From a virus (taxonomy: Duplodnaviria; Caudoviricetes), in IMG/VR virus record IMGVR_UViG_3300034064_001787, positions 1 through 63,568 of that record: a stretch of 63,568 nt of DNA, one strand, 5' to 3'. This document shows positions 4,705 through 61,840 of this stretch, piece by piece. Each line of letters starts with the position of its first letter. Position 1 is the stretch's first letter. The notes below the pieces were generated by a model, which was given only the letters and a program-made list of their open reading frames with translations, was not told where the DNA came from and did not search any database. The translations under genes were made by a program, and so were the position numbers.

Positions 4705-4808
4705 GCCCCGCCCACGGCGTCAACGGGAGCCAGACTGGGAGAAGAGGAGACTGGGAGAAGAGGAGTGGAGGAAATTCAGAGTCTCCGAGTCTCAAAGTCT
4801 CCCAGTCT

Positions 4809-7967: not shown

Positions 7968-8132
7968 GCCCCGCGCCCCGCGTCAACGCCCCGCCTGCTT
8001 TCATCCATCATCCTTCCTCCTTCCTCCTTCATCATTCATCATTCATCCTTCATCCTTCCTCTTTCCGCCCTTCCCACCTTGACGCCCAGCGTGAAAGCCC
8101 GCACGCTCCACCCCCCTCGCCACGCCGACACC

Positions 8133-8817: not shown

Positions 8818-9609
8818 ATGTCTCAAAATTCTAAATGGTTCAGCATCGCCAAAGATGCCATTGCCCCCCGCGCTACGGAAATTCTCGATAGCATTCACAG
8901 TGCCATCACTGGCGCGATTCCATGCCTTGGCATTGTGCGATACAATGCCAAAATTGAAGGCGTCTCTTTGAAAGAACTGGTGGCCAAGTATGGCGACGGC
9001 ACGCGCAAAACTTTCGATAATGCACTGCCCCACGCTGAAGTTTTGCGTTTTTGTGAAGGAAAGTTGCCAGAATCGGCTTACTTCGCCATCACCTACGCGA
9101 AAGCAAGAGAAATTCGTGCCGCGTTTGAAGCGCACAAAGACAATACCGCCGCGAAAGAAGCCGCCGAAAAATATCTCTCCGTTTCCAAGTTTCGCGGAGC
9201 ATGGGCGGATGAACTCATTAAACGCATTAATGAGGCCGCTAAGAAGCCGGAAGCCAAGCCGGAAGATGGCAAGCCGGAAGATGGCAAGCCCGAAGATGGC
9301 AAGCCCGAAGATGGCAAGCCCGAAGATGGCAAGCCGGAAGATGGCAAGCCGGAAGATGGCAAGCCCGAAGATGGCAAGCCCGAAGAAACGGCTACGCTAG
9401 ATCAATTCCAGTTTATCACTGAGCTGGAAAAGCTCACACGCCGACTTTCGCCAGATAAGGCGGAAATCACGCGCTCCATGCTGGCTCGCGCGGTGAATGA
9501 TGCGACCGCATGGCGCAAATTCTGCGGTCTTAGCGAGGAAGCCGCCCCCCCTGTCAACGTGATTCCACTTCACACGCCAGCGAAGAAACGCGAGAAAAAG
9601 GCTGCTTAA
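8818..9609 (+). CDS. Hypothetical early protein with (KPEDG)8 repeat
   Basis: 263-aa ORF followed by a terminator. Confidence 0.8.
   Translation: MSQNSKWFSIAKDAIAPRATEILDSIHSAITGAIPCLGIVRYNAKIEGVSLKELVAKYGDGTRKTFDNALPHAEVLRFCEGKLPESAYFAITYAKAREIRAAFEAHKDNTAAKEAAEKYLSVSKFRGAWADELIKRINEAAKKPEAKPEDGKPEDGKPEDGKPEDGKPEDGKPEDGKPEDGKPEDGKPEETATLDQFQFITELEKLTRRLSPDKAEITRSMLARAVNDATAWRKFCGLSEEAAPPVNVIPLHTPAKKREKKAA
9256..9386 (+). repeat. 15-bp tandem repeat AAGCC(G/C)GAAGATGGC, 8 full copies plus a partial
   Basis: Read directly. Confidence 0.95.
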
Positions 9610-9625
9610 CCTGCCAAGCCTCACG

Positions 9626-9658
9626 CGAGGCGCGGAGAAATCCGCGCCTCGTTTTTTT
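9626..9658 (+). terminator. Intrinsic terminator
   Basis: CGAGGCGCGGA-GAAA-TCCGCGCCTCG-T7. Confidence 0.85.
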
Positions 9659-9715
9659 GACCTGGTTCCCGAAAGTGGCGCGTCCGCGCTCACCGGGAGA
9701 ATCATGCCCACCCCT

Positions 9716-19314: not shown

Positions 19315-19444
19315 CCTCTCCCAGTCTCCCCCTCTCCCCATCTCCTCCTCTTCTTTTCCTGCGGCCTGAGAGCCCGCAGGCATGGCAAGCAAGGCCCCCC
19401 CCACGAGCCCCTGTCCTCCACGCGAGGGCAGGGGCTTTTCTCTG

Positions 19445-24262: not shown

Positions 24263-24372
24263 GCCTGCAACAATCGTATTCCTCATTCCTCATTCCTCAT
24301 TCATCATTCCTCATTCCCACCGGCTGACACCCCACGCTCTCCGAGTCTCCTCTTCTCCAAGTCTCCCAGTCC

Positions 24373-24624
24373 ATGCCTTCCCTCGTCAAACCGCCCCGCG
24401 AACTCCTCTTCCACACCTACCTCGGCGTCGAAATCTACCTCTTCGATGCCACTCACGGCCACCGCCGTGAAGGCTGGAACCACCACCAGGACCCATACTG
24501 CCTCGTCCAGCTCGATCCCGTCCTCCCTCACAAAGACTTCGGCCTAGTCGGCGACGACCTCGACACCCTCCTCCTCGAAACCAAACACGTCATCGACCGC
24601 CGCAAGAAGGTGAAGCTGAATTGA
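24373..24624 (+). CDS. Hypothetical protein
   Basis: 83-aa ORF. Confidence 0.65.
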   Translation: MPSLVKPPRELLFHTYLGVEIYLFDATHGHRREGWNHHQDPYCLVQLDPVLPHKDFGLVGDDLDTLLLETKHVIDRRKKVKLN

Positions 24625-24629
24625 AGGGG

Positions 24630-24719
24630 AACAAAAAGGATCAGGCACAAAATGGGCGGACTTGATGCCGCCTCGTCTAGTGCCTCTCCGCCCATTTTGT
24701 TGCTCTGCATCCGCTGGTT
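24630..24719 (-). mobile_element. attC-like recombination site (array 1)
   Basis: AAC-6nt-GATCAGGCACAAAATGGGCGGA...TCCGCCCATTTTGT(T)GC(T)CTG(C)ATC-5nt-GTT; long inverted repeat with extrahelical bases. Confidence 0.8.
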
Positions 24720-24767
24720 CTCATTCCGTTCCCCTCGACTGCCGCAATAGATTCTTTGAATTGTGTA

Positions 24768-24796
24768 TTGACACAATTATCGGCCTATGCAATACT
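24768..24796 (+). promoter_or_regulatory. sigma70 promoter with overlapping operator
   Basis: TTGACA-N17-AATACT; inverted repeat AATTGTGT/ACACAATT at 24759-24778. Confidence 0.65.
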
Positions 24797-24861
24797 GCTC
24801 TCGTTCCAAAAAGGAACAACGTCCCGGCGTCTCCGGCTCAACTCAGCAAAGAATACAAGCC

Positions 24862-25479
24862 ATGAAACTCAGCATCCGCAATATCACCGCCTCAATCTCC
24901 AGCATGATTGAGGAATACGCCCAAGAATCCGACTCAATCGCCAGCGGAGTCGTTGGACCGTCCTTTTCCTGCTCTGGCCCTGGTTCAGGATGGCAGAAAA
25001 ACCATGATGTCACCGATTACGCCGAGCGGGCACTCTCAGACGATTACGGTGCCAGCAGCTACATCGACAGCGAGGATGGCCGCGAGGCCACGCTAGAAGA
25101 CGGCGAAGTGGTATGGTCTGAGGAATCTGTCGTCGAGATCGAGCTGCCGACTGTCGAGCAAGCTCTCGAAGACATGGAGACTTGGAAGATCATCAAAAGG
25201 GAGGCCGCGAACTACGGCGTCGATCAAAGCGAGATCGACGAACTGGCTGAAACAATTGAAGAGTGCCGGGAGATTATCGCTGAAATCACAACGGCCAAAA
25301 AAGCCGCTGGAGAAGACGCCTATCTCTGGCTGCATGACTCAGGAGATTGCATCCTCTGGGAGTCTGAAGAAGACAGCGAAAACGACAACGGTAGTCGCGC
25401 CATTGAGCGCTGGTCGCTAAGCAAAGCGCAGCGCGATGCACTGATCGAAACCACCAGCCTCGTCGATTGCAACGCCTAA
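24862..25479 (+). CDS. Highly acidic hypothetical protein (cassette gene)
   Basis: D/E-rich 205 aa; inside an attC-bounded cassette. Confidence 0.75.
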   Translation: MKLSIRNITASISSMIEEYAQESDSIASGVVGPSFSCSGPGSGWQKNHDVTDYAERALSDDYGASSYIDSEDGREATLEDGEVVWSEESVVEIELPTVEQALEDMETWKIIKREAANYGVDQSEIDELAETIEECREIIAEITTAKKAAGEDAYLWLHDSGDCILWESEEDSENDNGSRAIERWSLSKAQRDALIETTSLVDCNA

Positions 25480-25482
25480 CCC

Positions 25483-25923
25483 ATGACACTCCACCACTAC
25501 ACCGTCCAAACCGGCCACCTCACCCTGCAAACGCGGGGTGAGGTGGATCAAAAAGCGCTCGATCTCCTCGCGCCCATGATCAAGCCTGGCACGCACGCAC
25601 TGCCCGGAACAACGATCAAGCTCGACATACCGGCGGGCAACATGGGGCAGACCTCTGGCGTTGGCTCATTCCGCCTCCTCGCCGCCGATGGCGAGCCTGT
25701 GGCGCTCGCCATGCTGGCCTGGAGAGCCAGTGCAGAGGCAGGTGTCATCTGGGGCACATGTCTGCCGAATACACCCCTGCCAGACGCTCCGGCTGGCTAC
25801 CCATGGCTCGCCATCGTCCTCATGCCAGCCATCGCCACACTCAGCCGCGACGATACGCTCATGCTCGGAGACATCGAGAGATGTGTCGCATGGTCAATCA
25901 TCACCCAACAGCCAGCCGGATGA
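25483..25923 (+). CDS. Hypothetical protein (cassette gene)
   Basis: 146-aa ORF. Confidence 0.7.
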   Translation: MTLHHYTVQTGHLTLQTRGEVDQKALDLLAPMIKPGTHALPGTTIKLDIPAGNMGQTSGVGSFRLLAADGEPVALAMLAWRASAEAGVIWGTCLPNTPLPDAPAGYPWLAIVLMPAIATLSRDDTLMLGDIERCVAWSIITQQPAG

Positions 25924-26120
25924 AAAACGATCTCACACCCACACGCGGAGCGCCCCCCAAACGGGGCGCTACCGCCTCCGCCATCATCAACGTCCGGGTG
26001 GACGCTGATCGCAAAAACCACTACACGCGCTTCGCGAAAAAGCGCCGTGATGGAGACAAGACCCTCGCTGGCCTCGTGATCGAAACACTCGACGCGGCGA
26101 CTGGCTACCGTGAGGAATGA
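25920..26120 (+). CDS. Ribbon-helix-helix-like regulator (cassette gene)
   Basis: RGAPPK...INVRVD..RK..Y...A......LAGLVIETLD. Confidence 0.65.
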   Translation: MKNDLTPTRGAPPKRGATASAIINVRVDADRKNHYTRFAKKRRDGDKTLAGLVIETLDAATGYREE

Positions 26121-26121
26121 G

Positions 26122-26206
26122 AACGATTAAAATCAGGCGACGGCGAGCGCAAAAGATCGAAACCACGATAGACGCCCTATGAGCCGTTCCTCTCCATCCA
26201 ATTGTT
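26122..26206 (-). mobile_element. attC-like site with imperfect or hybrid arms (array 1)
   Basis: AAC at 26122 and GTT at 26204, ACGGC/GCCGT core; flanks complement the cassette ends. Confidence 0.6.
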
Positions 26207-26388
26207 CGTCTTCCGTTCCGTGGTGGGCATGGGTGTTCATTGCGCCCGCCGCCATCATACTCTCGCCAATCGGCACCTGTATCCTAACGGAATGGCTGCA
26301 TTTAGACTTTATAGGATGCTGCAAGCTCATTGCTGGACAGGTCATCGTGTTTCTCAGTTTAGCGATCTTCGCAGGAGGTGAAGATTGA
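26179..26388 (+). CDS. Small 2-TM membrane protein (cassette gene)
   Basis: Hydrophobic ORF; start codon inside the attC-like site. Confidence 0.6.
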   Translation: MSRSSPSNCSSSVPWWAWVFIAPAAIILSPIGTCILTEWLHLDFIGCCKLIAGQVIVFLSLAIFAGGED

Positions 26389-26483
26389 AGACGAACGACA
26401 AGGATCACGCGACCGATTACACCGCCCTGCGCAAAGCCGCCTTCCCGTAGCGACTCTCCCCGTCTCAAAACCTCATACTCCCC

Positions 26484-26513: not shown

Positions 26514-28346
26514 ATGAAACTCGTCCAACAACTCCAAGCCGCCGGTCAGGACCACGAATTCTACCCGACCACAAACGAAATCCTTCACGCTCTCTTCACG
26601 CACCTTTGCCGGGGTGATGAGGAAGCCGAATCTCCCCAAAAACAGCGCTTCCACGGCACCGTCATGGACATCGGCGCTGGCAATGGCAAAGTCCTCGCCG
26701 AGTTTGCCAAACGCGGCGCGGACACACTCTACGCCATCGAGAAAAGCCCGCTCCTGCAGCGGGAGCTGCCACCGCAAGTGCTCGTCATCGGCACCGACTT
26801 TGCGGAGCAGTCCCTTTTCACCAAACCGGTCGATCTCCTCTTCTGCAACCCGCCCTACTCGCAGTTCATCTGCTGGATGGTCAAGATCATCCGCACTGCC
26901 GCGGCCAAGGAACTCTACCTCGTCGTCCCCCGCCGCTGGCAGGACAATCCTGACGTCATCGCCGCGCTACGCTTCCGTGGCGTGCTCCTACCCCACGAAA
27001 AAGATCCCAAAGAACCACCGCCAAAGCCTACCCACCTCGTCACCGACCACCCTGAAAACCAAGCCTGGGATGCGCAATGGGGGCCAATCCGAAGCAGCAG
27101 CGGCCAGATCATCAGGTGCCGCTACTACACCCCTCACATTCGCGTCACCATCGTCGGCGAGTTCGACTTCGAAGATGCCGAAGACCGCAAGGCGCGCGCC
27201 AAGGTCCACCTCTTGCACATCCCGCTCGAAACCTCCGGCAAGCACCAGGAAAACGACGATGCCTTCGAACGCTTCTTCCAGGAGCAGTTCGCCGATCTCA
27301 TCGCCCGCTTCCAAGGTCAGAAGGAGAAACCCTCCGCCTATGAGCAGCCCCCGCCACCGCCGGATCGCTTCCCGCTCGTCACCGCAGAGAGCTACATCGA
27401 AGCCCTCGTCCAGTGCTACCACGCCGAGCTGGCGAACATCGAGAAGAACTACAACGCCGTGGCCACGCTCGATGCGGATCTGCTCCGCGAGTTCGAGGTC
27501 TATCCCGCGAAAATCATGGCCTGCCTCAAGCAGCGCCTCAGCGGCCTCCGCCACGACTACTGGCACGAGCTCTTTGACCGCATGGACAAGCTCACCTCCC
27601 GCCTCACCACCGCCAGCCGGGAATCCATGCTCGGCACCCTGCGCCGGCACGTCCAGGTCGATTTCACCGTCTCCAACATCCACGCCATCGTCCTCTGGGC
27701 GCTGAAGAACGTCAATCGCTACATCGACGCGCAGTTCATCGACACCTACGAAACCATGGTGGAGCACTGCAACATCCAGAACTACCACAGCAACCAGCGC
27801 ACCTGGCAGAAGGGTGACTGGCGCTACAACCACGCCCGCGGCCGCAACGAATGGGCGCACGACAACACCCACTTCAAGCTGGATTACCGCATCGTTTTGC
27901 AAGGCGTCGGCGGCATCGCCACCTACGAATACGACTTCCAAAAAGAAGCGCACAATTACCTCAAAGAGAAGTGCTACCACTTACTCCGCGATCTCCTCAC
28001 CATCGCCAACAATCTCGGCTTTTTCTGCTCGGTCAATCCCTACCAACTCGTCGGCAGATGCCACTCCTGGCAGAGCAACCAACGCGAGGAATTCTACTGG
28101 ACCCCAGAACCCGGCAAACAAGAGATTCTCTTCGACGCCCGCGCCTTCAAAAACGGCAATCTCCATCTCCGCCTCCACCCGCGCTTCATCCTGGCCCTCA
28201 ACGTCGAGCACGGCCGCCTCAAAGGCTGGCTCAAGGATCAGCACGATGCCGTCACCGAACTCGGCGACATGGAAGCCGCCCACTTCTGGAAAGCCAATCT
28301 TCACCTCCCCATGCCCACCAACCCCGCCCTGCTCCTCGCCGCATGA
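26514..28346 (+). CDS. Amino-DNA methyltransferase with DUF4942-like C-terminus
   Basis: EFYPT, DIGAGNG (motif I), NPPY (motif IV), FKNGNLH. Confidence 0.85.
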   Translation: MKLVQQLQAAGQDHEFYPTTNEILHALFTHLCRGDEEAESPQKQRFHGTVMDIGAGNGKVLAEFAKRGADTLYAIEKSPLLQRELPPQVLVIGTDFAEQSLFTKPVDLLFCNPPYSQFICWMVKIIRTAAAKELYLVVPRRWQDNPDVIAALRFRGVLLPHEKDPKEPPPKPTHLVTDHPENQAWDAQWGPIRSSSGQIIRCRYYTPHIRVTIVGEFDFEDAEDRKARAKVHLLHIPLETSGKHQENDDAFERFFQEQFADLIARFQGQKEKPSAYEQPPPPPDRFPLVTAESYIEALVQCYHAELANIEKNYNAVATLDADLLREFEVYPAKIMACLKQRLSGLRHDYWHELFDRMDKLTSRLTTASRESMLGTLRRHVQVDFTVSNIHAIVLWALKNVNRYIDAQFIDTYETMVEHCNIQNYHSNQRTWQKGDWRYNHARGRNEWAHDNTHFKLDYRIVLQGVGGIATYEYDFQKEAHNYLKEKCYHLLRDLLTIANNLGFFCSVNPYQLVGRCHSWQSNQREEFYWTPEPGKQEILFDARAFKNGNLHLRLHPRFILALNVEHGRLKGWLKDQHDAVTELGDMEAAHFWKANLHLPMPTNPALLLAA

Positions 28347-34694: not shown

Positions 34695-34966
34695 GCCCTG
34701 AACTCTCCACCGCCATCGCCTGCGCCACCGCCGTGAGAGGCCAACTCCAAAGCGACATCGCAACAACCTTCACACCCGACAAAGCAGCGTTGAGCAAAGC
34801 CATCGACCAATTCCTCACCCAAGCCTTCAGCGGCAGATTCGCAGATCGTGAAGCCCAACAAAACAGCGCAGCACCCCTCAAAAATCGCAGCGGACACAGC
34901 AGTGAGTGCCCTAAAGCCCCGCATTCACATGCTCCCGCACCGGAGCATAGCCCACGTAATTCTTGA
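34691..34966 (+). CDS. Hypothetical protein
   Basis: ATGA-coupled ORF, convergent with the integrase. Confidence 0.45.
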   Translation: MSPELSTAIACATAVRGQLQSDIATTFTPDKAALSKAIDQFLTQAFSGRFADREAQQNSAAPLKNRSGHSSECPKAPHSHAPAPEHSPRNS

Positions 34967-35996
34967 ACGTCACCTCGATCCCATCGCCCAGCCACTGCGC
35001 CACCGTCGCGATCGGGCACCCACCCATCACCAGCAAAGTCGCAAACGTATGACGCATCGAATGCCACCCCACCCACGGCAGCCCAGCCGCCACCACCAGC
35101 CGCTTCAATGGCTTCCGTGGTTCCCAGCGATACTTATGCTTTGCATGCCCCACATCAGGTCGCACCACGAACGGCCCATCAAACCGCTGGCCATGCAGGA
35201 ACTCATACAGCCGGTCATTCATCGGGATCCGACGAGCCTCCTTATCCTTCGGCACAAAAGTCGAAGTCTCCATCACACACACCTCACCACCACCCGGCCA
35301 GAAGCGCAGCCACTCCGGCCTCATCTCGATCATCTCATGCAGCCGCAGCCCCGCATGAAAGCCCAACATCAGCATCAGCCTCAAATCCTCCCGATCACAC
35401 AGATCGATCAGCCGCTCACGCTCCTCACGCGTGCAGAAACGATCCGCCCGCGTCTTCCGCACCACCGGCACCTTCACCTCATCCGCCACATTCCTCGGCA
35501 GCACCCCACGCTCCACCAACCAGGCCAGGAAAGCATGCAGCCGCAGCAGGTAAGTCTTCACCGTCGCCACCGCCTTCCCAGCCTCACGCAGCCCCTTCAG
35601 CCAACCCTCCACACGCCTTGCCGTGATCAGCGCCACCGGCGTCTCCACCCCCAGGAACACACCAAACAACTTCAAAGCCGACGCATCCGAATCCAGCGTC
35701 CATCGGCTCATCACCCGCTCACGCCGCACCTCCAAAAAACGCTCCCTCTCGAAAGCAAACGTCCCCGGCGTAAACTCCACTGGACGATCCCGATGCAGAT
35801 CCAGCGCCAGCTTCACCGCCTCATCGTAAGAGCGAGTCCCCAGCGCCACCCTCGGCGGCCGACGCCCCTCCCGTTGAGCCGGCCTAAAATACCACCAGCC
35901 CCCGATCTCCGTCAGTCCCTTGATCTTCACGCGACCCCTCAGCGCCCCTCTCGGAGCCTTTTTTTGACCACTTTGGTTGACCACTTTGGAGCGCAT
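34911..35996 (-). CDS. int: Tyrosine integrase
   Basis: GLRLHE (R), PKDK (K), HSMRHTF (HxxR), WLG and catalytic Y; adjacent to attP. Confidence 0.92.
   Translation of the reverse strand: MRSKVVNQSGQKKAPRGALRGRVKIKGLTEIGGWWYFRPAQREGRRPPRVALGTRSYDEAVKLALDLHRDRPVEFTPGTFAFERERFLEVRRERVMSRWTLDSDASALKLFGVFLGVETPVALITARRVEGWLKGLREAGKAVATVKTYLLRLHAFLAWLVERGVLPRNVADEVKVPVVRKTRADRFCTREERERLIDLCDREDLRLMLMLGFHAGLRLHEMIEMRPEWLRFWPGGGEVCVMETSTFVPKDKEARRIPMNDRLYEFLHGQRFDGPFVVRPDVGHAKHKYRWEPRKPLKRLVVAAGLPWVGWHSMRHTFATLLVMGGCPIATVAQWLGDGIEVTFKNYVGYAPVREHVNAGL
35964..35987 (+). repeat. Integrase arm-type direct repeats TTGACCACTTT x2
   Basis: The same pair recurs at 36139-36161 on the other side of the core. 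Confidence 0.7.
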
Positions 35997-36052
35997 AACG
36001 TGTGTTATATGGTCAAAAAGAGGGACTTTACAAGCCCCATCCCTGTGACCGA

Positions 36053-36101
36053 TGGTGGAGATAAGGGGATTCGAACCCCTGACCTTCTCATTGCGAATGA
36101 G
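36053..36101 (-). mobile_element. attP core, the 3' half of tRNA-Ala(CGC)
   Basis: Minus strand CTCATTCGCAATGAGAAGGTCAGGGGTTCGAATCCCCTTATCTCCACCA (anticodon arm, T arm, CCA); 5' half absent. Confidence 0.88.
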
Positions 36102-36104
36102 CAG

Positions 36105-36120
36105 CGTTCCACATGGAACA
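36105..36120. promoter_or_regulatory. parS-like site
   Basis: CGTTCCACATGGAACA compared with consensus TGTT(T/C)CACGTG(A/G)AACA. Confidence 0.5.
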
Positions 36121-36138
36121 CCTCTTAGTGTCACGAAT

Positions 36139-36161
36139 TTGACCACTTTCGTTGACCACTT
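36139..36161 (+). repeat. Integrase arm-type direct repeats TTGACCACTT x2
   Basis: Matches 35964-35987. Confidence 0.7.
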
Positions 36162-37973: not shown

Positions 37974-38015
37974 TCTTTCCACCGCCCTCCAAGCCGCTCA
38001 CCTCAAATCTGCCGC

Positions 38016-38351
38016 ATGACCGCCGACCAAATCAACGAACTCCGCGACGATTTCCGCCTCGACACCCTGCGCACCACCCTGGCGTGCAGCCCGGCCGACC
38101 AAATCAACGAACTCCGCGACAATTTCCGCGTCGCCTTACTCGACTGGGATATTCCCGTCTCCATCACCATTGAGGACGACTACGCCATCGTCCGCTTCAC
38201 GCTTTGGGGCACCAAAATCGAAGGCTGGTTCCACCGCTACAAAAACGAGTGGATCACAAATCCCGACTGCCCACACGCCATCACTGGCAGCACCTCCGTC
38301 TGGCAATGGATTGCCATGCACCTCCACGAACGTCTTCCCGCGCCCAAATGA
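38016..38351 (+). CDS. Hypothetical protein with duplicated N-terminus
   Basis: ADQINELRD occurs twice (27-bp direct repeat). Confidence 0.6.
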   Translation: MTADQINELRDDFRLDTLRTTLACSPADQINELRDNFRVALLDWDIPVSITIEDDYAIVRFTLWGTKIEGWFHRYKNEWITNPDCPHAITGSTSVWQWIAMHLHERLPAPK

Positions 38352-39832
38352 CCCCCACCATTCCCATCCGTGAACGCATCGACCGCGTGAAGCACGCCCT
38401 GCCACTCCTCCGCTACCTGGAGAGCACACTCAGCTTCAAGTTCCGCCCGGTCAAAAGCGGCCAGTGGCTCACCCTCTGCCCCTTTCACAGCGAGAAGACC
38501 CCCTCCTTCCACCTCTTCGAGCAGGATCACCACTACCACTGCTACGGCTGCGGCGCTCATGGCGACATCGTCGATTTCATCCAGGCCACCAAAGGCTGCA
38601 GCAAGCTCGAAGCCCTCCAAATGCTCGAGCAGGACGCCCCCGGCCTCCGCTACCTCAATGCCGCCCCACCGCCCAAACCCGAGCCCGAGGCCCCACTCCT
38701 CCCGCTCAAAGACAGCCGCCATCAGGCCTGGCTCAGCGCCTGCGAAAAACTCGCCTCCAACGACCCCGAACTGAAGCGTCTCGCCGACTGGCGCGGCTTC
38801 TCCCCAGACACCTTTCGCGGAGCCGCCCGCGCCGGTCTCATGGCCCTCTGGCGTTACTGGGACCAGCCCCGCGAAGCCTTCCTCGTCCTCGCCCCCCGTT
38901 CCTTCTTCACCGGCCTTCCCCCTGCATGCAGCCCCTCCACCTCTTCCTCATCGTCTTCATCCTCGGACTCAGCCACATCTTCGCTTACCTCCTTGGACGA
39001 CTCCGAGGACAGCGCCTCCGCCCATCTCCCCGTCTCCCCCTCTCCCTATCTCGAACTCCTCCCCCACGCCTTCCACTGCCGCCTCGCCCCAGACACCCCG
39101 GGAAATCCGCATAAAAAGCAGTCCTGGCGTTACGATCCCGCTGGCAGCAAGGCCTGGCCCTTCTTCTGGGGAAATCCCTTCGAGGCACGTTACCTCTTCA
39201 TCCTGGAAGGCCAGTGGGACGCCCTCGCCCTCGCCGATCTCTGCGGCTGGCACAGCCCCGAGAGCATGCCACCGAAGACCTGCATCATCGGCCTGCGCGG
39301 AGCCACGAGCTGGCGACTCCTCCTCCACAAAGAGCACGGCCTCCCCATCGACCCCGAGGCCACCGCTATCTGCATTGGCGATGCCGATGCCGCCGGAGCC
39401 AAATGGTATGAGCCGGACGGCTTCCTCGCCACCCTGCGGCCCCGCGTGAAGCAGCTCCTCACCTACCGCCCCACTGCCAGCGGCTGCAAAGACTTCAACG
39501 ACCTCACCAAAGGCGGCCACCTCACCGCCGCCGACTTCCTTGGTTGGGTCAAGGCCCGCCTCAAACGCCACCCCTGGCGGCAGCCCGGCCCGCCCCTCAC
39601 CTTCGGCGCGTGGTGCAAGTCCGCCGCCCTCCGGGAGGACGATCTCGGCCGCGCCGCTCGCCTCGTCGCCACCGATCCCACCCGTCCCAAAGGCCGGAAA
39701 AACCCCAAGCACTGGCGCTCCTACTGGCGCGCCCAAAAACACCTCACCGAAGCCGATCTCCTCCTCCTCTACACCCTCCTCGACACCTGGAAAACCCGCG
39801 CCGCCCCCGACACCGCCATTCTCGCTGAATAA
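38348..39832 (+). CDS. DNA primase (CHC2 zinc finger plus TOPRIM)
   Basis: CPFHSEKTPSF...HCYGCG; ILEGQWD; GDAD; KDFND. Confidence 0.88.
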   Translation: MTPTIPIRERIDRVKHALPLLRYLESTLSFKFRPVKSGQWLTLCPFHSEKTPSFHLFEQDHHYHCYGCGAHGDIVDFIQATKGCSKLEALQMLEQDAPGLRYLNAAPPPKPEPEAPLLPLKDSRHQAWLSACEKLASNDPELKRLADWRGFSPDTFRGAARAGLMALWRYWDQPREAFLVLAPRSFFTGLPPACSPSTSSSSSSSSDSATSSLTSLDDSEDSASAHLPVSPSPYLELLPHAFHCRLAPDTPGNPHKKQSWRYDPAGSKAWPFFWGNPFEARYLFILEGQWDALALADLCGWHSPESMPPKTCIIGLRGATSWRLLLHKEHGLPIDPEATAICIGDADAAGAKWYEPDGFLATLRPRVKQLLTYRPTASGCKDFNDLTKGGHLTAADFLGWVKARLKRHPWRQPGPPLTFGAWCKSAALREDDLGRAARLVATDPTRPKGRKNPKHWRSYWRAQKHLTEADLLLLYTLLDTWKTRAAPDTAILAE

Positions 39833-39870
39833 TCCGTCAATCCCGTCACCCCGGTCAATCCGGTCACCCC

Positions 39871-40065
39871 ATGAAATACCTTCCCCACATCCTCGCCTCC
39901 CTCTACCTCACTGGCTTCATCCCCACCTTCGGCCACGCCTACGCCCACCACGCGGATCCACCAAAGGCTCCCTTCGCTCCCCCTGGCTGGCGCGTCATCT
40001 CATCGACCATCTGCGCTGCCTTCTGGCCCTTTTACTGGAGTGTTCAGGCCCACACACCGGACTGA
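39871..40065 (+). CDS. Small membrane protein
   Basis: Hydrophobic, with WPFYW. Confidence 0.5.
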   Translation: MKYLPHILASLYLTGFIPTFGHAYAHHADPPKAPFAPPGWRVISSTICAAFWPFYWSVQAHTPD

Positions 40066-40134
40066 TTTTCAAAAAATTCAGCCCACCCGGAATCCCAATT
40101 CTAAAATTTCGATGACACCCCGCGCCTCCTTGCT

Positions 40135-40680
40135 GTGCCGCCTCCCCCTCTCCATGAAACCGCCCCTTCTCCCACGCGGGCTCGTCCCGGCACCCAGCGT
40201 TCCCGTGGCACCTCTGCCACCGCTCCCCCGGCACTCCTCATCGTCCACATGCCGGATGGCGAGCGCCGCCTCTCCGAGACCGCCCACGATCTCGGCCTCG
40301 CCCTCGCCAGCCTCGCCACCCCGCTCCTCTACCGGCGCGGTCGCCTCCCCGTCTATCCCGACTGGATCGAGCAGGACGGCGAGCGCCGCCGCGCTCTCAT
40401 TCCCCTCGAAGCCGCCGAAGCCCGCACCTTCTTTGACGAGTCCATTCTCTTCGTGCGGATGAAATACGATCAGCGCAGCGAGACCGAGCGCCAGGAGCAC
40501 GTCACCCTGTCCAAATCCGAAGCCGAAGGCCTCCTCGTCGCCAAGCAGCTCCTCCAGCACCTCCCCGAGATCACCGCCATCCATCCACGCCCCCTTCCCA
40601 TCCTCAACCCCGATGGCACCCTCCGCCTCCTCCCTCCCGGCTACGACCCCGATACCGGCATCTACACCTACGGGGAGTGA
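40135..40680 (+). CDS. N-terminal part of a primase-associated helicase/ATPase (split gene)
   Basis: Ends in P.L..DG.L....GYDP.TGIY, a motif I recall lying just upstream of 'EFPF' in this family. Confidence 0.6.
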   Translation: MPPPPLHETAPSPTRARPGTQRSRGTSATAPPALLIVHMPDGERRLSETAHDLGLALASLATPLLYRRGRLPVYPDWIEQDGERRRALIPLEAAEARTFFDESILFVRMKYDQRSETERQEHVTLSKSEAEGLLVAKQLLQHLPEITAIHPRPLPILNPDGTLRLLPPGYDPDTGIYTYGE

Positions 40681-40748
40681 GGAGCGCCGCAACGTCCCTG
40701 CTCTGGCACAGAGCGTGGGAGAGAAAACTAAACCGAAGGAAAAGGCCA

Positions 40749-41186
40749 ATGAATAAAAACCAACTCAATGATGCCACAGCGCCCCGTTCGGCTTTTCTTG
40801 TGGCGAAAATGTCCGATGGCAGCCGATGGAAATTGCCCGTGGCGAAGCTCTTGGAAAGTATAGCAGATAGCTGGCAGAAATACTGGGAAGATGAAGGAAA
40901 ACCAGGGACACGAGAGGAAGCTCTGGAGGAAGCATGGCTGGAACGCCTGCATCCGATTGTTGTGCCTTGGGTTGGAAAGCTCAGGCATGACCGTGAAAAG
41001 TTCGCTGATTGGGGATGGATCAGAGACGAGGCAGGCGAGTTGATCTTTAAAGTGCCGATTCCACTTTGTCTTTCCGAGGAAGATTTGCAGAAATACCGCC
41101 GCGAGAAAATCGACCCGACTCAAGCGCGGGTCGATGCGCTGCTAAATGCTCTCAATGGGCACAACGGAAAGGATGACCCACGATGA
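40749..41186 (+). CDS. Fused cassette protein (cassettes 1 and 2)
   Basis: In-frame fusion across a collapsed attC; C-terminal half identical to the 41499 protein. Confidence 0.7.
   Translation: MNKNQLNDATAPRSAFLVAKMSDGSRWKLPVAKLLESIADSWQKYWEDEGKPGTREEALEEAWLERLHPIVVPWVGKLRHDREKFADWGWIRDEAGELIFKVPIPLCLSEEDLQKYRREKIDPTQARVDALLNALNGHNGKDDPR
40944..41165 (+). repeat. 222-bp duplication, copy 1 (copy 2 at 41550-41771)
   Basis: Five substitutions, all synonymous. Confidence 0.95.
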
Positions 41187-41497
41187 CCGCGAATAACGGC
41201 TCCGCTTCACCCTCGACTCCAACGCGGTCAGCGTTGGGTCAATCCGCTGGTTCGGCATTGTGCGCCGGGTGCCAGTGGATAGCCGATAAACCCGGCCAAT
41301 GGTGCGATATGCTCCGTGACGCACCGGAGGAACTGCCATGCACACAACACGACCAATTCGCTCCGATCAGGGAAACAATGGTTAAAACCGGCATGGCAAA
41401 ACTCGTCATCGCTGCGGCGGTTATCGGTATGCCGAACACCAAGGATCAGGCGACCGATGGGGCGCATAACCAGAATCAACCAACGAAGTCCAAGTGA
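41183..41497 (+). CDS. Cys-rich cassette protein
   Basis: CAGC...C...C; ATG inside the attC; ATGA-coupled. Confidence 0.65.
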   Translation: MTANNGSASPSTPTRSALGQSAGSALCAGCQWIADKPGQWCDMLRDAPEELPCTQHDQFAPIRETMVKTGMAKLVIAAAVIGMPNTKDQATDGAHNQNQPTKSK

Positions 41498-41498
41498 T

Positions 41499-41783
41499 AT
41501 GAGCGAAGGAATCCAAACTGAAAAGTCCGGCAGCAGCGCCCCATCTGGTCGCCTGCATCCGATTGTTGTGCCTTGGGTTGGAAAGCTCAGGCATGACCGT
41601 GAAAAGTTCGCTGATTGGGGATGGATCAGAGACGAGGCAGGCGAGTTGATCTTCAAAGTGCCGATTCCACTTTGTCTTTCCGAGGAAGATTTGCAGAAAT
41701 ACCGCCGCGAGAAAATAGACCCGACTCAAGCCCGTGTCGATGCGCTGCTAAATGCTCTCAATGGTCACAACCGCCGATGGTGA
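41499..41783 (+). CDS. Cassette protein (duplicate of cassette 2)
   Basis: ATG in the attC loop; stop in the next attC. Confidence 0.7.
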   Translation: MSEGIQTEKSGSSAPSGRLHPIVVPWVGKLRHDREKFADWGWIRDEAGELIFKVPIPLCLSEEDLQKYRREKIDPTQARVDALLNALNGHNRRW

Positions 41784-41870
41784 TGGACGGCGCGAACCCG
41801 CTCCGCCTACTCACTGACTTCCTCGCCGTTCCATCCACCTACTTGTTCTCTGAATCAGCCCGAAATACCT

Positions 41871-42206
41871 ATGAACTTTGACATCAATACAAACGTCCGC
41901 CTCTTCGATCTTGTGCGCTTCATGCGCTCGAAACTCTACGAAGCGGAACTCATCACCGACCGCGAATACATATGGCTCTGTGCCGAAGCCCCAATGGCTA
42001 AAGGCCAAGGAAGCCCTTCACCACGCCGACTGGAAGACTACGACGAGATCCGTGCGAAGATGAAGCGCATGGAAAGCGCACTGAAAAGCATCGCCGCTCA
42101 CGATGGCCCCGGATTCCCGCATGGGACATGTGCCAAGATCGCCGCCGAAGGCTTGGATTCAGAGAACGCCGAGGCCATCCACGGCGAGAAAGGAGTATCG
42201 AAATGA
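41871..42206 (+). CDS. Cassette protein
   Basis: 111 aa; stop inside the next attC loop. Confidence 0.7.
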   Translation: MNFDINTNVRLFDLVRFMRSKLYEAELITDREYIWLCAEAPMAKGQGSPSPRRLEDYDEIRAKMKRMESALKSIAAHDGPGFPHGTCAKIAAEGLDSENAEAIHGEKGVSK

Positions 42207-42448
42207 AGAAAGACGATGAACGCCGTTGGATGCGCCGCCTTGTTCGCTGGGGCTGGTTTGCATGTTTTCTTGGTAACTACGAGTGGTATCGACGCCTCTA
42301 CGGAGGGCTTTGGGCGCATGTCCACGTAGAGGAACCTTGCTACTCCTGCATGTGGCTCAACTGCCCTGCGGGTGCTGATGAAAGCTACCGCGAATGGAAC
42401 TGGCGTGGCACTCCCGAGTTCCGCAATTACGATTCAGCGAACAGTTAA
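42203..42448 (+). CDS. Trp-rich cassette protein
   Basis: AGGAG plus ATG inside the attC loop; ATGA-coupled. Confidence 0.65.
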   Translation: MKKDDERRWMRRLVRWGWFACFLGNYEWYRRLYGGLWAHVHVEEPCYSCMWLNCPAGADESYREWNWRGTPEFRNYDSANS

Positions 42449-42534
42449 TATCCCGAACACAATTCGGTATATCACCAGCCAAACCAGAACACTCCCCCTC
42501 TCCCAGTCTCCTCTTCTCCAAGTCTCCCCACCCC

Positions 42535-43947
42535 ATGCCCCCCAGCGCCGCCTATCTCATCGCCCTCTACAAGGAGTTCCCCTTCCAGGAAGGCCGCCTC
42601 GATGACCTCCTACGCCGGCACCGTGTCCGCATCCAGGACGGACAGGTCGTTGAGGGAGACCTCAACACCATCCCCGCCGAGCAATGGCCGCGCTCCTTCC
42701 GCGTCCATCTCGCGTTCATGGTCACCCTGGCCGCCACCGCTCTGCTGCCGAAAGGATCCAACCGCCTCGGCTTCGCCTACAACGCCAACGCGCCCCGCTC
42801 CGGGAAGACGCTCCTCGTCCAGTCCGCCATCTGCCCCATCTACGGCTGGACGAGCGGACGCTCCTGGCCCGTGAGCGGGCAGGGGAAGAACCACAGCGAT
42901 GAAGCCGAACTGCGGAAATCTCTCGATGCCATCGCCCTCGAAGGCACTCCCTACATCTTCTTCGACAACATCCGCTGCCAGGTCGAATCCCAAGCCCTCG
43001 AAAGCTACATGACCACGCCCACCTGGAGCGGGCGCTTCATGGGCAGGAACGACAAAACCTTCACTGCCGCGGCCTGCGCCACCATCGCCCTCACTGGGAA
43101 CGGCCTCAAAGCCTCCACCGACAACATGGAGCGCTTTCTCTTCTGTGACCTCTTCGTCGAGGAAGTCGAGGCCACCTCGCGCCCCATCGAAAACGTCATC
43201 GAGCAGCCCTGGATCATGGAGAACCGGGAAGAAATCTTCACCGCCGTCATGGGCCTCATCACCCACTGGGATGCCATGGGTCGCCCACCACCGCCCGCCC
43301 GCGTCCGCCGTGGCTTCGAGACCTTTGGAAACATCATCGGCGGCATCATCTCCGCCGCCGGTTTCGGGGATCTCTTTGAGCGCCGTCCCGACAACGAATC
43401 CTCCGGCAACAGCGCCGACACCGACATGCGCCGCCTAGTCCACCTCATGGTCGAAGCCATCGGCCCCCACCTCACCGATCCACGCCCCCGCCACGAGTTC
43501 ACCTTCGATCACCTCGTGCAGATCTCCTTCCAAGACGGCCTCTTCACCTACTACCTCGAAGGCAAGGAGCAGTTCGATGCCCCCACCCAGACCACCAAGC
43601 TCCACCTCACCAATCAGAGCAATGCCCGCTTTGGTGCCGCCCTGCGCTCCTACGCCCCGGAAAAGAAAGGCCGCACCTGGGAGCTGCCCCACAACAGCCG
43701 CCTACGCCTGCAAAGCAACGGCAACGGCCGCAGCAAGCGCTACATCGCCACCCTGGAGCTCACCCCACGCGGGCGGCTGCATCAGCTCCTCCACTACCAC
43801 GAGATCGGCATCGCCACCTTTGACCAATGGTTGCTTGATCAAGGCTTCCCCGTGCTCTCCGGCACCACCGAGGAGGAGCAGCAGCTCCTCCTCCAGGGCT
43901 GGCCCGCCACCTTGCAGGAACTCAAGGCCAGCATGCCCACGAGTTAG
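42535..43947 (+). CDS. P-loop helicase/ATPase, C-terminal part of the split gene
   Basis: EFPF; Walker A APRSGKT; IFFDN; TGN; D..ERF. Confidence 0.8.
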   Translation: MPPSAAYLIALYKEFPFQEGRLDDLLRRHRVRIQDGQVVEGDLNTIPAEQWPRSFRVHLAFMVTLAATALLPKGSNRLGFAYNANAPRSGKTLLVQSAICPIYGWTSGRSWPVSGQGKNHSDEAELRKSLDAIALEGTPYIFFDNIRCQVESQALESYMTTPTWSGRFMGRNDKTFTAAACATIALTGNGLKASTDNMERFLFCDLFVEEVEATSRPIENVIEQPWIMENREEIFTAVMGLITHWDAMGRPPPPARVRRGFETFGNIIGGIISAAGFGDLFERRPDNESSGNSADTDMRRLVHLMVEAIGPHLTDPRPRHEFTFDHLVQISFQDGLFTYYLEGKEQFDAPTQTTKLHLTNQSNARFGAALRSYAPEKKGRTWELPHNSRLRLQSNGNGRSKRYIATLELTPRGRLHQLLHYHEIGIATFDQWLLDQGFPVLSGTTEEEQQLLLQGWPATLQELKASMPTS

Positions 43948-46835
43948 TTCAGTCGCTGCGCCGCGCCACCCACGTTCAGGCCTTTCACGGTCTGAATGAG
44001 CTTGTCCAGCCGCTCCACCACTTTCTTCGTATCCGCCCCGGCACTCACCCCGCCGCCGCCGCCGATCCGCTGCAGGCTGTCCACCTGCTGGCCGCGTCCC
44101 ATCAAAGCCTGGAATAACCCGCCTTCACGCTCCAGCTCGCGCCCCATGCGGTTGCGCTGCACTTCGGTGTCGGCTTGTTTCTCCGCCTCGGCTTTAGACA
44201 GGCCGGTTTGATCCATCAATTCCCGCGCGCGGCGGGCCTTCCCCGCGTCTTCTTCGATGCGGGCCGCGTCTTCCTCCAGCTTCCGCGCCTCCGCGCCCCG
44301 CCCGCCCAAACGCGCCGCCTGCGCCTCCAGTTTTTTCTGCGCGGACTGTTGATCTGCCGTGTTTTCCGCCACCGCCAGCGCTTTTTTCAGCGCCAGCATC
44401 CGCTCCTCCGCCTTCAGCGCCTTCAAGCGGTTGCGATAAACCTCATCGTCAATTTCTTTGTAAGAGCGCTGCTGCTCCAGCCTCTCCTTTTCAATGCGGA
44501 GCTGCGCCTCCGCCGCCGCCAAAGCGCCCCGCGTTTCCTCCGTGCCCGCCATCCGCGCCGCTTGGCCAGACTCCGCCACCGCCCGCTCCCGCGCCCGTTT
44601 TTCCTGCTCCGCTTGCGCCCGTGCCGCGATTTCCTGCGGCTTATTCACCAGCGCCTGCTGCAGCTCGCGTTTCAGCCGCTCCACCTCCGCGCTCATGACC
44701 TGTGCGGACGCTGGGGTGATCCCCGCCGCGCCCGCCACATTTTCCAGCATGGCACGTTGCTTCTGCGCCTGCACCAGCGCCCGCTCGGCGGCTTCGATGG
44801 CCGCCGCCCGCTTCTCAGCATCCTCACCGCCTTCCGTCTCGGAGTTTTGCAGCTCCCGCAGCTTCGTTTCTGCTGCGCCGATGCTTTGCACCGCAGCTTG
44901 ATACTTCGCATACAGCGTCAGCTTGGCTTGCATCTTCACGATGGCACTGTCCTGGGCCTCCGCCAGTTGCAGCTCCTGCTGCAGCAGCGCCTGCTCTTCC
45001 GTCCTCAGCGCGTCCATCGCACGGACAGCGGCGTCATATTGCGCGAATGCCGCTTCACTCGGGTTGGCCTTGTAGGCGCTCATCGCCATGTCCATCCGCC
45101 CTGTTTGCTCCGCCTGTTGCGCCTGGTTTTTCATCAGGGCCGTGCCCACCCCCTGCTTGTTCTGCTCAAAGGTTTGGATCTCCAGGTTCTCCTTCACCGC
45201 CGCCGCCCGCTCATTGCCCAGCTTCTCCGCCTCCTTGCGCAGGGAGGCCTCCCGCGCCAGCGGGCTCATCGTCTGCCGATCGGCATCGATCTGCGCCTGA
45301 GTTTCCGCCCGCGCATTGCCCCGGCGGGCCGTCTGGTTTTCCACATAAAACGCGTTTTTCTCCAACGTGTCCCGTGGCAAACTGTCCATCTTCTCCAACT
45401 CACGTTTGAGCCGGATCTGCCGCTCAATCGCCGCCGTGCGCCGGTCGGACTGGCCCGCCCCCGCGGCCGCCGCCTCATCACGGTAAGCCTGCGCCAACTC
45501 ATCCAGCGTGCCTTTGTAAGCCGCAGAAAGCTGGTCCAGCGTTTTCACCGCCTGCCGCTGCGCTTCCAGTTTCGCCAGCAGTGCGTCAGTGGCACCCTCA
45601 TACTCGCGCAGCGCCCGGGCGTTTCCCTGGACCCTGTTGGAATACATCTGCCACAGGGCCGCCGCTGCTGCCAACACCACCACCACCGCCCCCAGCGACC
45701 CCGTGACCAAAGCCTTCGCCGCTCTTCCTAGCAAAGCCAGTGCCTTGGAAAGGTTCGTCAGCGCCCGCCCCGTCAGCGTGGACGCACCCGCCAGCCCCGT
45801 GAGCCACACCACGGCCTTCCCACCCACCGCCGAGCCCGCCAGCGCCACCAGTGCCACCGACAGCGTCCCCACGGCCCGCGTCACAAATTCCAAACCTTGA
45901 GCCACCAACGGCAAACCGGTGACAAACGCCAAAAACCGCGATCCCAACGAGTTGACCACGGAAACCAAGCCCCCCAGGCTGTCCCCCAGGCTGGCCACCA
46001 CAGGCTGCAGGTTCTCCATCGCCTTGATCTGCGCTTGCAGGCTTTCTTTCTGGCCTTCCAGGAAATTCTCACTGAACGCCACCTTCAGTGCGTCCGCCGT
46101 GTCATTGGCCGTCTCCTGCAGGCCTTCAAAGGACTTGCTGGTGTAGCTCATGGTGCCGCTGGAACGGGCCAGCTCGCTTTCCACCACCCGCCACACCTCG
46201 GAAAAGCCCGCGCCGCTCTCTTGCAGCCGCTCCAGCGCCGTGCGGGCCTGCCCAGAGATCACCCCCAGCTCCGCCAGTCGGAACAGCACCTCCCCCACCG
46301 GTCGGCCGGCCGCCAAACCGTCATAGAGACGCCCCACATACACCGCCATGTCTTGAAATCCCACCCCCGCTTGGGAGGCCGCATCGCCGATCATGCGCAT
46401 GGCCGCGGCGTTCGAGAGCGCCCCGCGCGTCAGGCTTTCCAGCGCTCGGTTCCCTTGCAGGATGTCCTGCAGATTGAACGGAGACTCCACCCCAAAGCTG
46501 CGCAGCTCCCGCAACCGCTGCTTGGCCGCATCCAGGCCTTTCAGCAGCACCCGGAGCTGGTTCTGCGCCGTCTCGATCTTCGCCGCCGAGCCCGTGCCCA
46601 TGCTGGCAAAGGCCTTGGTCAAGGCGTAAATCCCCTTCGTGGCCCCGTAGGCCACGCCCACAAACTTACCCATCGGCCCCAGCAGATGCGTGGCGATGGC
46701 CTGCCCCACGCCATTGAGCGCCGCCTCCGCCTTGGAGCCTCCCAAGATCAGCGTGCCCAACGCCGCCGCACCACCTTCTTTCAAAGACTGCGAGTTTGCG
46801 TCGATTCGTTTGCGGATGTTGCCGATGTCAGCCAT
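43944..46835 (-). CDS. Tail tape measure protein
   Basis: 963 aa, Ala-rich helical, tape-measure N-terminal domain (SPF.L..I), VDSLQRIGGGG; TTGAC-N14-ATG. Confidence 0.88.
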   Translation of the reverse strand: MADIGNIRKRIDANSQSLKEGGAAALGTLILGGSKAEAALNGVGQAIATHLLGPMGKFVGVAYGATKGIYALTKAFASMGTGSAAKIETAQNQLRVLLKGLDAAKQRLRELRSFGVESPFNLQDILQGNRALESLTRGALSNAAAMRMIGDAASQAGVGFQDMAVYVGRLYDGLAAGRPVGEVLFRLAELGVISGQARTALERLQESGAGFSEVWRVVESELARSSGTMSYTSKSFEGLQETANDTADALKVAFSENFLEGQKESLQAQIKAMENLQPVVASLGDSLGGLVSVVNSLGSRFLAFVTGLPLVAQGLEFVTRAVGTLSVALVALAGSAVGGKAVVWLTGLAGASTLTGRALTNLSKALALLGRAAKALVTGSLGAVVVVLAAAAALWQMYSNRVQGNARALREYEGATDALLAKLEAQRQAVKTLDQLSAAYKGTLDELAQAYRDEAAAAGAGQSDRRTAAIERQIRLKRELEKMDSLPRDTLEKNAFYVENQTARRGNARAETQAQIDADRQTMSPLAREASLRKEAEKLGNERAAAVKENLEIQTFEQNKQGVGTALMKNQAQQAEQTGRMDMAMSAYKANPSEAAFAQYDAAVRAMDALRTEEQALLQQELQLAEAQDSAIVKMQAKLTLYAKYQAAVQSIGAAETKLRELQNSETEGGEDAEKRAAAIEAAERALVQAQKQRAMLENVAGAAGITPASAQVMSAEVERLKRELQQALVNKPQEIAARAQAEQEKRARERAVAESGQAARMAGTEETRGALAAAEAQLRIEKERLEQQRSYKEIDDEVYRNRLKALKAEERMLALKKALAVAENTADQQSAQKKLEAQAARLGGRGAEARKLEEDAARIEEDAGKARRARELMDQTGLSKAEAEKQADTEVQRNRMGRELEREGGLFQALMGRGQQVDSLQRIGGGGGVSAGADTKKVVERLDKLIQTVKGLNVGGAAQRLN

Positions 46836-60813: not shown

Positions 60814-60855
60814 GGCAGAAAGAAGAGGAGACGAGGAGAAGGGGAGACTTGGAGA

Positions 60856-61668: not shown

Positions 61669-61840
61669 GGGTGTGAAAACCTGCGGCGGGTGTCAATCAA
61701 GCCAGACTTGGAGAAGAGGAGGCAAGGAGAAGAGGAGACTCAGAATCTCCCCATCTCAAAGTCTCCCAGTCTCCTAGTCTCCTAGTCTGGCCCTACGCCG
61801 CCGCACTCACCCCCCCGGCTTCGGCACCTCCCACAGCCTT

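Follow-up and report, generated by a model that had tools for sequence, protein, structure and literature searches.

Integrons are the main known bacterial device for stockpiling and shuffling small adaptive genes. Their crossover falls inside the R box of the recombination site, so that each site becomes chimeric and the boxes flanking an open reading frame (ORF) body match each other. Clusters of the attC sites of integrons have been reported in phages only recently. Here we describe a viral record that is complete, has direct terminal repeats and measures 63,568 bp (IMG/VR record IMGVR_UViG_3300034064_001787; Duplodnaviria, Caudoviricetes), the whole of which is referred to below as the window. 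It contains a 222-bp sequence in two copies, at 40944-41165 and 41550-41771. This repeat is likely to be a single gene cassette that occurs two times within an integron-type array of cassettes in a lake phage.

Two kinds of described phage element come closest to this locus. In T4-type phages, promoter-stem-loop cassettes consist of repeated hairpin regulatory modules that flank small novel ORFs in plastic regions, and homologous recombination has been proposed as their mechanism; we know of no AAC/GTT feet and no chimeric boxes in such cassettes. The portion of Qi 2023 (PMC9892861) drawn on here reports clusters of attC sites lacking integron-integrases (CALINs) in 17 phage genomes, with five of six tested sites validated with IntI1. 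As far as that portion goes, the present locus resembles the phage CALINs in its co-oriented arrays of attC-type hairpins, its small ORFs, the lack of an integrase in cis and a DNA methylase among the cargo (here in a cassette of a related viral locus, L009); exchange with host integrons has been proposed. In contrast to them, the ORFs described here are on the strand whose layout is that of the bottom strand, each ORF follows its site, which brings the ribosome-binding site (RBS), start codon and leader with it, two arrays occur in one genome, and the sites were recognised by our own criteria rather than by IntegronFinder. Sedentary chromosomal integrons, such as the Vibrio integron carried by phage MK672802, also share features with the window, namely sites of about 90-133 nt, family-like sites (J1 below), chimeric R boxes and duplicated cassettes. 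Phage CALINs have been described before, as have cassettes that are duplicated or fused; what looks new is that the sites appear inverted relative to the genes and carry their translation starts.

The repeat lies in array 2 of the window, which spans 40691-42442 and holds six cassettes, with four intact and two truncated sites within 1.75 kb. Its features are:
40691-40788 (+): site J1-delta, from the first AAC of array 2, just past the stop codon of core gene 40135-40680, to GTT; it carries an RBS and the ATG at 40749.
Within J1-delta (+): deletion, the right arm being without 24 nt present in six other J1 copies.
40749-41186 (+): fusion ORF of 145 aa, comprising the J1 leader, a truncated cassette-1 body (to 40943) and copy 1 of a 74-codon body.
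40944-41165 (+): repeat copy 1, with a remnant of the J2 right arm at 40944-40961, a GTT box at 40959-40965 and its end AAC at 41163-41165.
41163-41252 (+): site J3, an attC-like hairpin of 90 nt with an arm duplex of -24.9 kcal/mol; its ATG at 41183 overlaps the stop codon of the fusion ORF.
41183-41497 (+): cassette-3 ORF of 104 aa, matching no known family; its body ends at the AAC heptamer 41431-41437.
41435-41567 (+): site J2, intact, 133 nt, with the ATG at 41499 in its loop and two extra bases on the 3' arm.
41499-41783 (+): cassette-2 ORF of 94 aa, containing copy 2.
41550-41771 (+): repeat copy 2, ending at the AAC 41769-41771.
41769-41847 (+): site J4, a weaker hairpin (-16.1 kcal/mol), with a 33-codon ORF from 41782 and then an ORF at 41871-42206.
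42165-42244 (+): site J5, a hairpin of -17.8 kcal/mol with the ATG at 42203 in its loop.
42203-42448 (+): last cassette ORF, of 81 aa; the heptamer at 42436-42442 closes the array.

A repeat finder returned the two copies, 606 nt apart, as a single two-copy family of 222 nt with 98% identity. Pairwise alignment placed exactly five differences between them (41048/41654 T/C, 41111/41717 C/A, 41126/41732 G/C, 41129/41735 G/T and 41159/41765 G/T). All five fall at codon position 3 and are synonymous in the plus frame (TTT/TTC, ATC/ATA, GCG/GCC, CGG/CGT and GGG/GGT), the same codon pairs as an initial annotation of this DNA had given, so both copies retain identical 74 residues. The 74 codons hold 49.8 synonymous and 172.2 non-synonymous sites, and the probability that five of five random changes are silent is 0.00057, or 0.00045-0.0016 in simulations with transition/transversion ratios of 1-4. 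Selection acts on the plus frame, since the same five changes alter residues of the ORFs overlapping on the minus strand. Purifying selection on the protein encoded by the repeat, which had been proposed at the outset, is statistically supported at these probabilities (about 0.0005-0.0016), and both copies, as was also proposed, may be translated. The homologue in the related viral contig L005 agrees with copy 1 at two of the five variable positions, with copy 2 at two and with neither at one; the silent differences could be older than the copies' presence together in a single genome.

The two ends of the repeat are of different kinds. Both copies open with the same 18-mer, which belongs to the right arm of the upstream site, as had been claimed, and which occurs at these two places only in the window (0.10 chance matches expected with up to three mismatches). 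At the other end identity stops at the common AAC (41163-41165 and 41769-41771) and the sequence beyond is unrelated, J3 following copy 1 and J4 following copy 2. This agrees with the initial annotation, which had put the end of identity at the terminal AAC with different hairpins after it.

The repeat is not a mis-assembly. Support came from Logan contigs of four lake-water runs (X1-X4) belonging to four studies, X1 being possibly the sample from which the window was assembled. In X1, contigs at a depth of about 38-40 span 40300-40973, 41081-41579, 41550-41716 and 41687-42700 without a single differing letter, and all four copy-specific junctions are found at the depth of the flanking single-copy genome. 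Exact contigs of low depth cross the fusion junction in X2 (40857-41007) and X4 (40917-41144), and in X3 they cross the junctions of copy 1 and of copy 2 with the next site (41026-41176 and 41731-41881). Contig cover of the stretch is partial in X2-X4, where gaps carry no weight. That two strain variants were stitched in tandem during assembly is scarcely credible: it is favoured by the fact that none of the contigs listed spans both copies, but it is contradicted by the flanking depth of the four junctions in X1 and by the short exact-match contigs that three runs from other studies yielded.

Each junction element folds into a long imperfect hairpin with AAC at its 5' foot, GTT at its 3' foot and a short unpaired spacer after each foot. 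On the coding strand the layout runs from four variable bases plus AAC, through a spacer of 3-5 nt, the stem with its additional bases on the 3' arm, a large loop and a further spacer, to GTT plus four variable bases. Single extra bases sit on one arm, and the RBS region and the ATG of the downstream ORF lie in the large loop. Sites of unrelated sequence have this architecture in common. Both strands of the genome were scanned for AAC...GTT pairs 45-165 nt apart, and among the 1520 pairs obtained the best three arm duplexes were J2, J3 and S1, all inside two islands of atypical composition. J2 (41435-41567) is the strongest AAC...GTT hairpin of the genome (-31.9 kcal/mol, z -4.19). DNA folds of ten sites gave z values from -1.70 to -4.82, and in four of the ten no shuffle of 200 folded equally well. 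Folding and the genome-wide scan together bear out that the sites are real structured elements. Site S1 belongs to array 1 (24630-26396), which has one intact, one degenerate and one half site and includes a 1.4-kb cassette with three ORFs:
24630-24719 (+): site S1, 90 nt, -24.5 kcal/mol, z -4.82, with AAC-N5-GGAT ... ATCC-N4-GTT as in J2 and J3.
26122-26206 (+): site S2, degenerate, -8.7 kcal/mol, 1405 nt downstream of the S1 GTT box.
26390-26420 (+): half-site S3, the end of array 1, with an AAC heptamer and a left-arm-like stretch and no right arm.

These elements were compared with attC sites. They carry AAC and GTT feet on an imperfect palindrome, the two triplets being present by construction of the scan, and they form a single-strand hairpin that has an unpaired spacer, a variable terminal loop and extrahelical bases on one of its arms, the features taken from the part of Nivina 2016 (PMC5027507) that deals with site structure. 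Their lengths, 79-133 nt in the window and 57-147 nt in the related loci, are within the known attC range, for which the same part gives 57-70 nt in mobile integrons and 133 nt for VCR2 (PMC5027507). In Rfam, nothing in the window reached the gathering score, and 40500-42700 gave matches at chance level only. Single-strand transposons of the IS200/IS605 type, which have a Y1 HUH transposase and a hairpin at either end, are a poor fit, as each unit has one hairpin and the genome has no PF01797 match.

The boxes of successive sites carry a signature of site-specific exchange. In 11 of 24 links, the heptamer at the GTT foot of one site and that at the AAC foot of its successor are exact reverse complements; the corresponding counts are 2 of 33 when both boxes belong to one site and 30 of 1032 when the paired sites are not adjacent. 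Links join consecutive sites as detected automatically and are raw counts, some being imperfect because of a false hairpin within a gene or missed weak sites. In the window, exact links are found in array 2 from the J2 remnant (40959-40965) to J3, from J3 to J2, from J4 to J5 (42161-42167) and from J5 to the array end (42436-42442), and in array 1 from S1 to S2 and from S2 to S3; the link from J2 to J4 matches at three of four variable positions. The chain in L009 has eight sites with six perfect links and one at three of four variable positions. Matching boxes across ORF bodies are the mark of integron-type recombination inside the AAC/GTT box, and the break of homology at AAC likewise corresponds to a crossover within AAC that yields chimeric R boxes. 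The chimeric-box signature alone leaves open which foot is cut.

Comparisons with other phages bear on the cut and on the extent of the mobile unit. A related viral contig (L005/L006) shares 41433-41771 with the window at 86%, from the AAC of J2 to the terminal AAC, and its flanks are unrelated on both sides; the cassette is thus found in another phage with different neighbours. In L010 and L012 a cassette is common up to AAC and the two then differ, L010 having one extra site-plus-ORF unit there. The close protein homologues P0002-P0005 (four of four, 77-97% identical) keep the leader encoded by J2, and their tails differ directly after ...GH(N/K). A variant contig of run X1 shows the same right end of the repeat. 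The homologues in L005/L006 and P0002-P0005 therefore keep the upstream and not the downstream site, which upholds the earlier assignment of the unit as upstream site plus ORF. The crossover at AAC that had been proposed is borne out by copies 1 and 2, by the window compared with L005/L006 and by the pair L010/L012, but not by the older pair L009/L012, which breaks at GTT. We infer a mobile unit made of a site and its downstream ORF and cut at AAC.

On this model, recombination would cut within the AAC at the 5' foot of the site, as integron integrases do with the bottom strand in its folded form, and the mobile unit would be one site plus the ORF downstream, ending in ...AA. Copy 2 would be the intact unit (J2 plus ORF). 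Plain local duplication by replication slippage or unequal crossing-over, with the coincidence at AAC arising by chance, seems very improbable to us. Such an event would suit the left end of identity, which is away from the crossover point, and the spacing of 606 nt, but it leaves the same right end in L005/L006, in the X1 variant contig and in all four close homologues diverging after ...GHN without explanation; moreover, the 384 nt separating the copies are a whole different cassette plus its site and do not belong to a tandem unit.

Copy 1 would, by the same integron-type model, have lost the J2 left arm and loop together with the 3' part of the preceding cassette, leaving an in-frame fusion and an immobile pair. 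The AAC adjoining the right arm lies at 40942-40944, as first described. The cassette-1 homologues P0006 (134 aa) and P0007 (129 aa) match the fusion protein as far as ...EEAWLE and go on for about 60 further residues, to ...CQPN, so this AAC is internal to the cassette-1 ORF and is not its terminal box. The fusion was therefore the product of a deletion that took away the 3' part of cassette 1 with its terminal box, as well as the J2 left arm and loop, and that joined the two frames. The initial annotation had attributed the fusion gene to site collapse; the in-frame fusion and the lost J2 arm hold, but P0006 and P0007 point to a larger deletion rather than a simple collapse at the cassette-1 end. 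J1 separately lost its 24 nt (8 codons) relative to the six other aligned copies. With the sites on both sides of cassette 1 disabled, the fused pair would be frozen in place. No locus for P0007 was found in viral contigs, and the unfused cassette 1 is known as a protein only. The partial loss of attC sites leading to fused cassettes is well known in mobile integrons, where, according to section 2.4.4 of PMC8876359, two cassettes become an immobile unit; hairpin slippage and illegitimate integrase events are the causes proposed there, and in-frame bifunctional fusions are known. The present case is alike in this respect but differs from those of that section in that a piece of the upstream ORF was lost in the deletion as well and the two reading frames became one.

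The J1 element is present in six viral contigs and two metagenome contigs, which with the window make seven distinct contexts, always with different ORFs on both sides; the seven upstream contexts are all different and six of them end in AAC. A J1 21-mer had no match in genome contigs and only two in metagenome contigs. L007 shares with the window 108 nt around a gene junction (98%) and the junction element 40690-40789 (82%). We also noted an X3 contig that matches 41439-41463 and 41538-41567; it carries both J2-type arms with a loop of 69 letters instead of 74 and a different sequence past GTT. Since this contig has the J2 arms with another loop and another downstream sequence, J2 represents a site family common to other cassettes.

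The polarity of the sites was then considered. Of 26 sites read on the coding strand, 20 carry their excess of unpaired bases on the arm opposite AAC, five show the reverse and one is equal. According to the part of Nivina 2016 (PMC5027507) that concerns the folded strand, integrases cut the AAC between its A and its C, in the bottom strand in its folded form, and the wild-type bottom strand is indicated with its extrahelical bases on the arm opposite the AAC triplet. As a control, the same script was applied to the Vibrio integron fragment in phage MK672802 (intI at 27091-28053 (-), cassettes on the plus strand). It found nine sites of 89-128 nt, and several of those compared with annotated genes sit just 3' of an ORF. 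In this control intI lies beside the array, the sites are 3' of the ORFs and the unpaired excess is on the AAC arm of the coding strand in all nine, the opposite of the 20 of 26, so that the coding strand of the lake phage has the bottom-strand layout. A canonical cassette has its ORF on the top strand and attC downstream, whereas here the site travels with the downstream ORF. It is possible, and proposed here only tentatively, that lake phages maintain a pool of "site-first" inverted cassettes, in which the coding-strand site upstream of the gene doubles as its translation start and the coding strand is recombined by a host integron integrase or by the phage's own Xer-like enzyme.

Several observations weigh against an integron-type array. 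The four variable box positions depart from the RYYY/RRRY consensus (RYYYAAC/GTTRRRY), the extra bases are mainly C, T or A, compared with G and T in studied sites, and the attC label rests on our own structural criteria together with the comparative signatures. The ORFs are on the strand that resembles the bottom strand, unlike those of canonical cassettes. No integron integrase was found in the window, where the best TIGR02249 scores were 18-34 bits against a cut-off of 265, and none exceeded the cut-off in five related viral records, one of which is estimated to be at least 90% complete. One J1 junction (in L010) has GCC in place of AAC. The left end of the 222-bp identity (40944) is inside a site arm, where there is no crossover point, so that a second, illegitimate event is needed. 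In the older pair L009/L012, ORF bodies that are 80% alike have perfect flanking boxes and different upstream sites and break at GTT. Finally, J1 is 82-98% identical between phages, which plain homologous recombination would also permit.

Three of these matters, namely the J1 identity over its seven contexts with unrelated ORFs (with the 98% identity of the 108-nt J2 part in L007), the break of L009/L012 at the other edge of the site and the failure to find an integron integrase in the phage, would equally suit conserved intergenic linkers. In that case each site would be a linker of regulatory hairpin, RBS and leader, and homologous recombination between linkers in co-infecting phages would shuffle the genes with no site-specific enzyme, the scheme put forward for the T4-type cassettes. 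We judge this unlikely, because it leaves unexplained the reverse complementarity of the boxes (11/24 against 30/1032), the AAC/GTT feet and one-sided bulges in sites of unrelated sequence, and breaks that fall at AAC instead of within the common stretch.

The genome encodes one recombinase of the tyrosine type:
34911-36146 (-): tyrosine recombinase, Xer-like and no integron integrase, the sole one in the genome.
It scored 43.4 bits against PF00589, and its best family matches are Xer-type, all far below the family cut-offs. The arrays do not form a complete integron, with intI and attI beside the array, as this best candidate gene is 5-9 kb from them. They correspond to a CALIN, defined as at least two clustered attC sites with no integrase nearby (as generally understood and as in the portion of PMC9892861 used here), on condition that the sites are attC. 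Since the phage has no integron integrase, a host integron integrase is most likely the acting enzyme. The same cassette system could instead be driven by the Xer-like recombinase of the phage itself, although we find this rather doubtful. No other recombinase came to light, searches of the genome for a Y1 transposase or a resolvase having been negative; its best families are Xer-type, and weak matches to the integron-integrase model TIGR02249, below cut-off, occur in two of the five related records (100% and 85% complete). In the Vibrio CTX phage, Xer enzymes are known to use a phage site folded from single-stranded DNA as their substrate. However, the gene stands 5-9 kb away from either array and has a tRNA-like stretch next to it, a placement expected of an ordinary lysogeny integrase, and all its family scores are far under the cut-offs.

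Two side observations concern recombinase genes. ARAGORN predicted a tRNA-Ala(cgc) at 36053-36125 (-), overlapping the 5' end of the recombinase ORF, and Rfam gave no tRNA at gathering score in the window; the tRNA-like stretch may be an attP remnant. In L018, the record behind L005, a 102-aa ORF at 1384-1692 matches positions 263-315 of TIGR02249 with 40.8 bits, that is, the C-terminal catalytic part only of recombinases of the integron/Xer type; it has the look of a truncated recombinase, and a primase-like gene lies just downstream of it.

The sites also appear to take part in expression. Each provides the RBS region, the start codon and about 20 leader codons. At each of the four junctions that lie downstream of the fusion (41183-41186, 41495-41501, 41781-41784 and 42203-42206), stop and start codons are overlapping or adjacent, which suggests one translationally coupled message, and the array is probably read as a single translationally coupled operon. 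In array 1, inspection by eye showed TTGACA, a 17-nt spacer and AATACT before the first ORF of the 1.4-kb cassette (24740-24800), which could be a cassette-borne promoter.

The cargo consists largely of small proteins that match no known family. Neither Pfam nor PHROGs gave a family for the cassette proteins of island 2, and Pfam gave none for the four ORFs of island 1, P0006 or P0009. The structure predicted for the 94-aa protein had a mean predicted local distance difference test (pLDDT) score of 58.9, a value too low to support a fold search; the ESM Atlas gave no usable match, and a profile search of the PDB gave nothing below E = 0.5. In L009, a 237-aa cassette ORF between two sites (1654-2364 (-)) is an N6_N4 DNA methylase (PF01555, 59.7 bits against a cut-off of 26.7). 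L022, the sole genome locus retrieved by domain profile, was considered as a clue to the host and set aside as unreliable, being a phage-like 4.4-kb contig without sites that was binned with a Chitinophagaceae metagenome-assembled genome.

In this genome and its relatives the arrays comprise 5 to about 10 cassettes and bear a clean signature of site-specific exchange, and different lake phages have in common a cargo pool of unknown small genes and a DNA methylase. The duplicated cassette may serve as an internal marker, fixing the crossover point and showing how the loss of a site arm can freeze cassettes into fusion genes. If confirmed, the inverted order of site and gene would be a distinct answer to the problem of expressing promoterless cassettes; each cassette would, if this is true, come ready for expression at any place that it enters in a translationally coupled operon of a phage. 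The flanking sites might then, on confirmation, be a handle for finding accessory genes of phages, including candidate anti-defence genes.

The plus strand of the genome is mostly C-rich, with a GC skew of about -0.2 to -0.37 over most of its length, and the region at about 41-42 kb is atypical, with 54% GC and a skew near 0. Array 2 has in its neighbourhood a DnaG-type primase gene (38204-39832; Zn_ribbon_DnaG, 66 bits), the core ORF 40135-40680 and the core gene 42535-43947. The last matches two unannotated phage families, and no relatives of it were found in viral contigs. A blastn search of 38000-44000 against the phages collection gave no match.

Some further elements were noted outside the cassettes. 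A C/T-rich element of about 35-52 nt, with a start codon at its end, is repeated ahead of core genes on both strands (42489-42539 and 24327-24377, and shorter near 4732-4767, 19315-19351, 60821-60855 and 61704-61788). It comes straight after the end of array 2 and may be a shared 5' leader or promoter region. Short repeat runs of the CATTCCT/CATCATT type are located just 5' of such leader elements, at 24270-24320 and 8000-8060. In L010, an apparent tRNA gene (5775-5850, by eye) follows the array and precedes the next core genes. An AAC...GTT hairpin at 9608-9667 was rejected as a cassette site, being a strong terminator-like stem with a T run after the gene 8818-9609. This ORF (263 aa) contains tandem 15-nt repeats at 9240-9385 that encode about eight PEDGK units.

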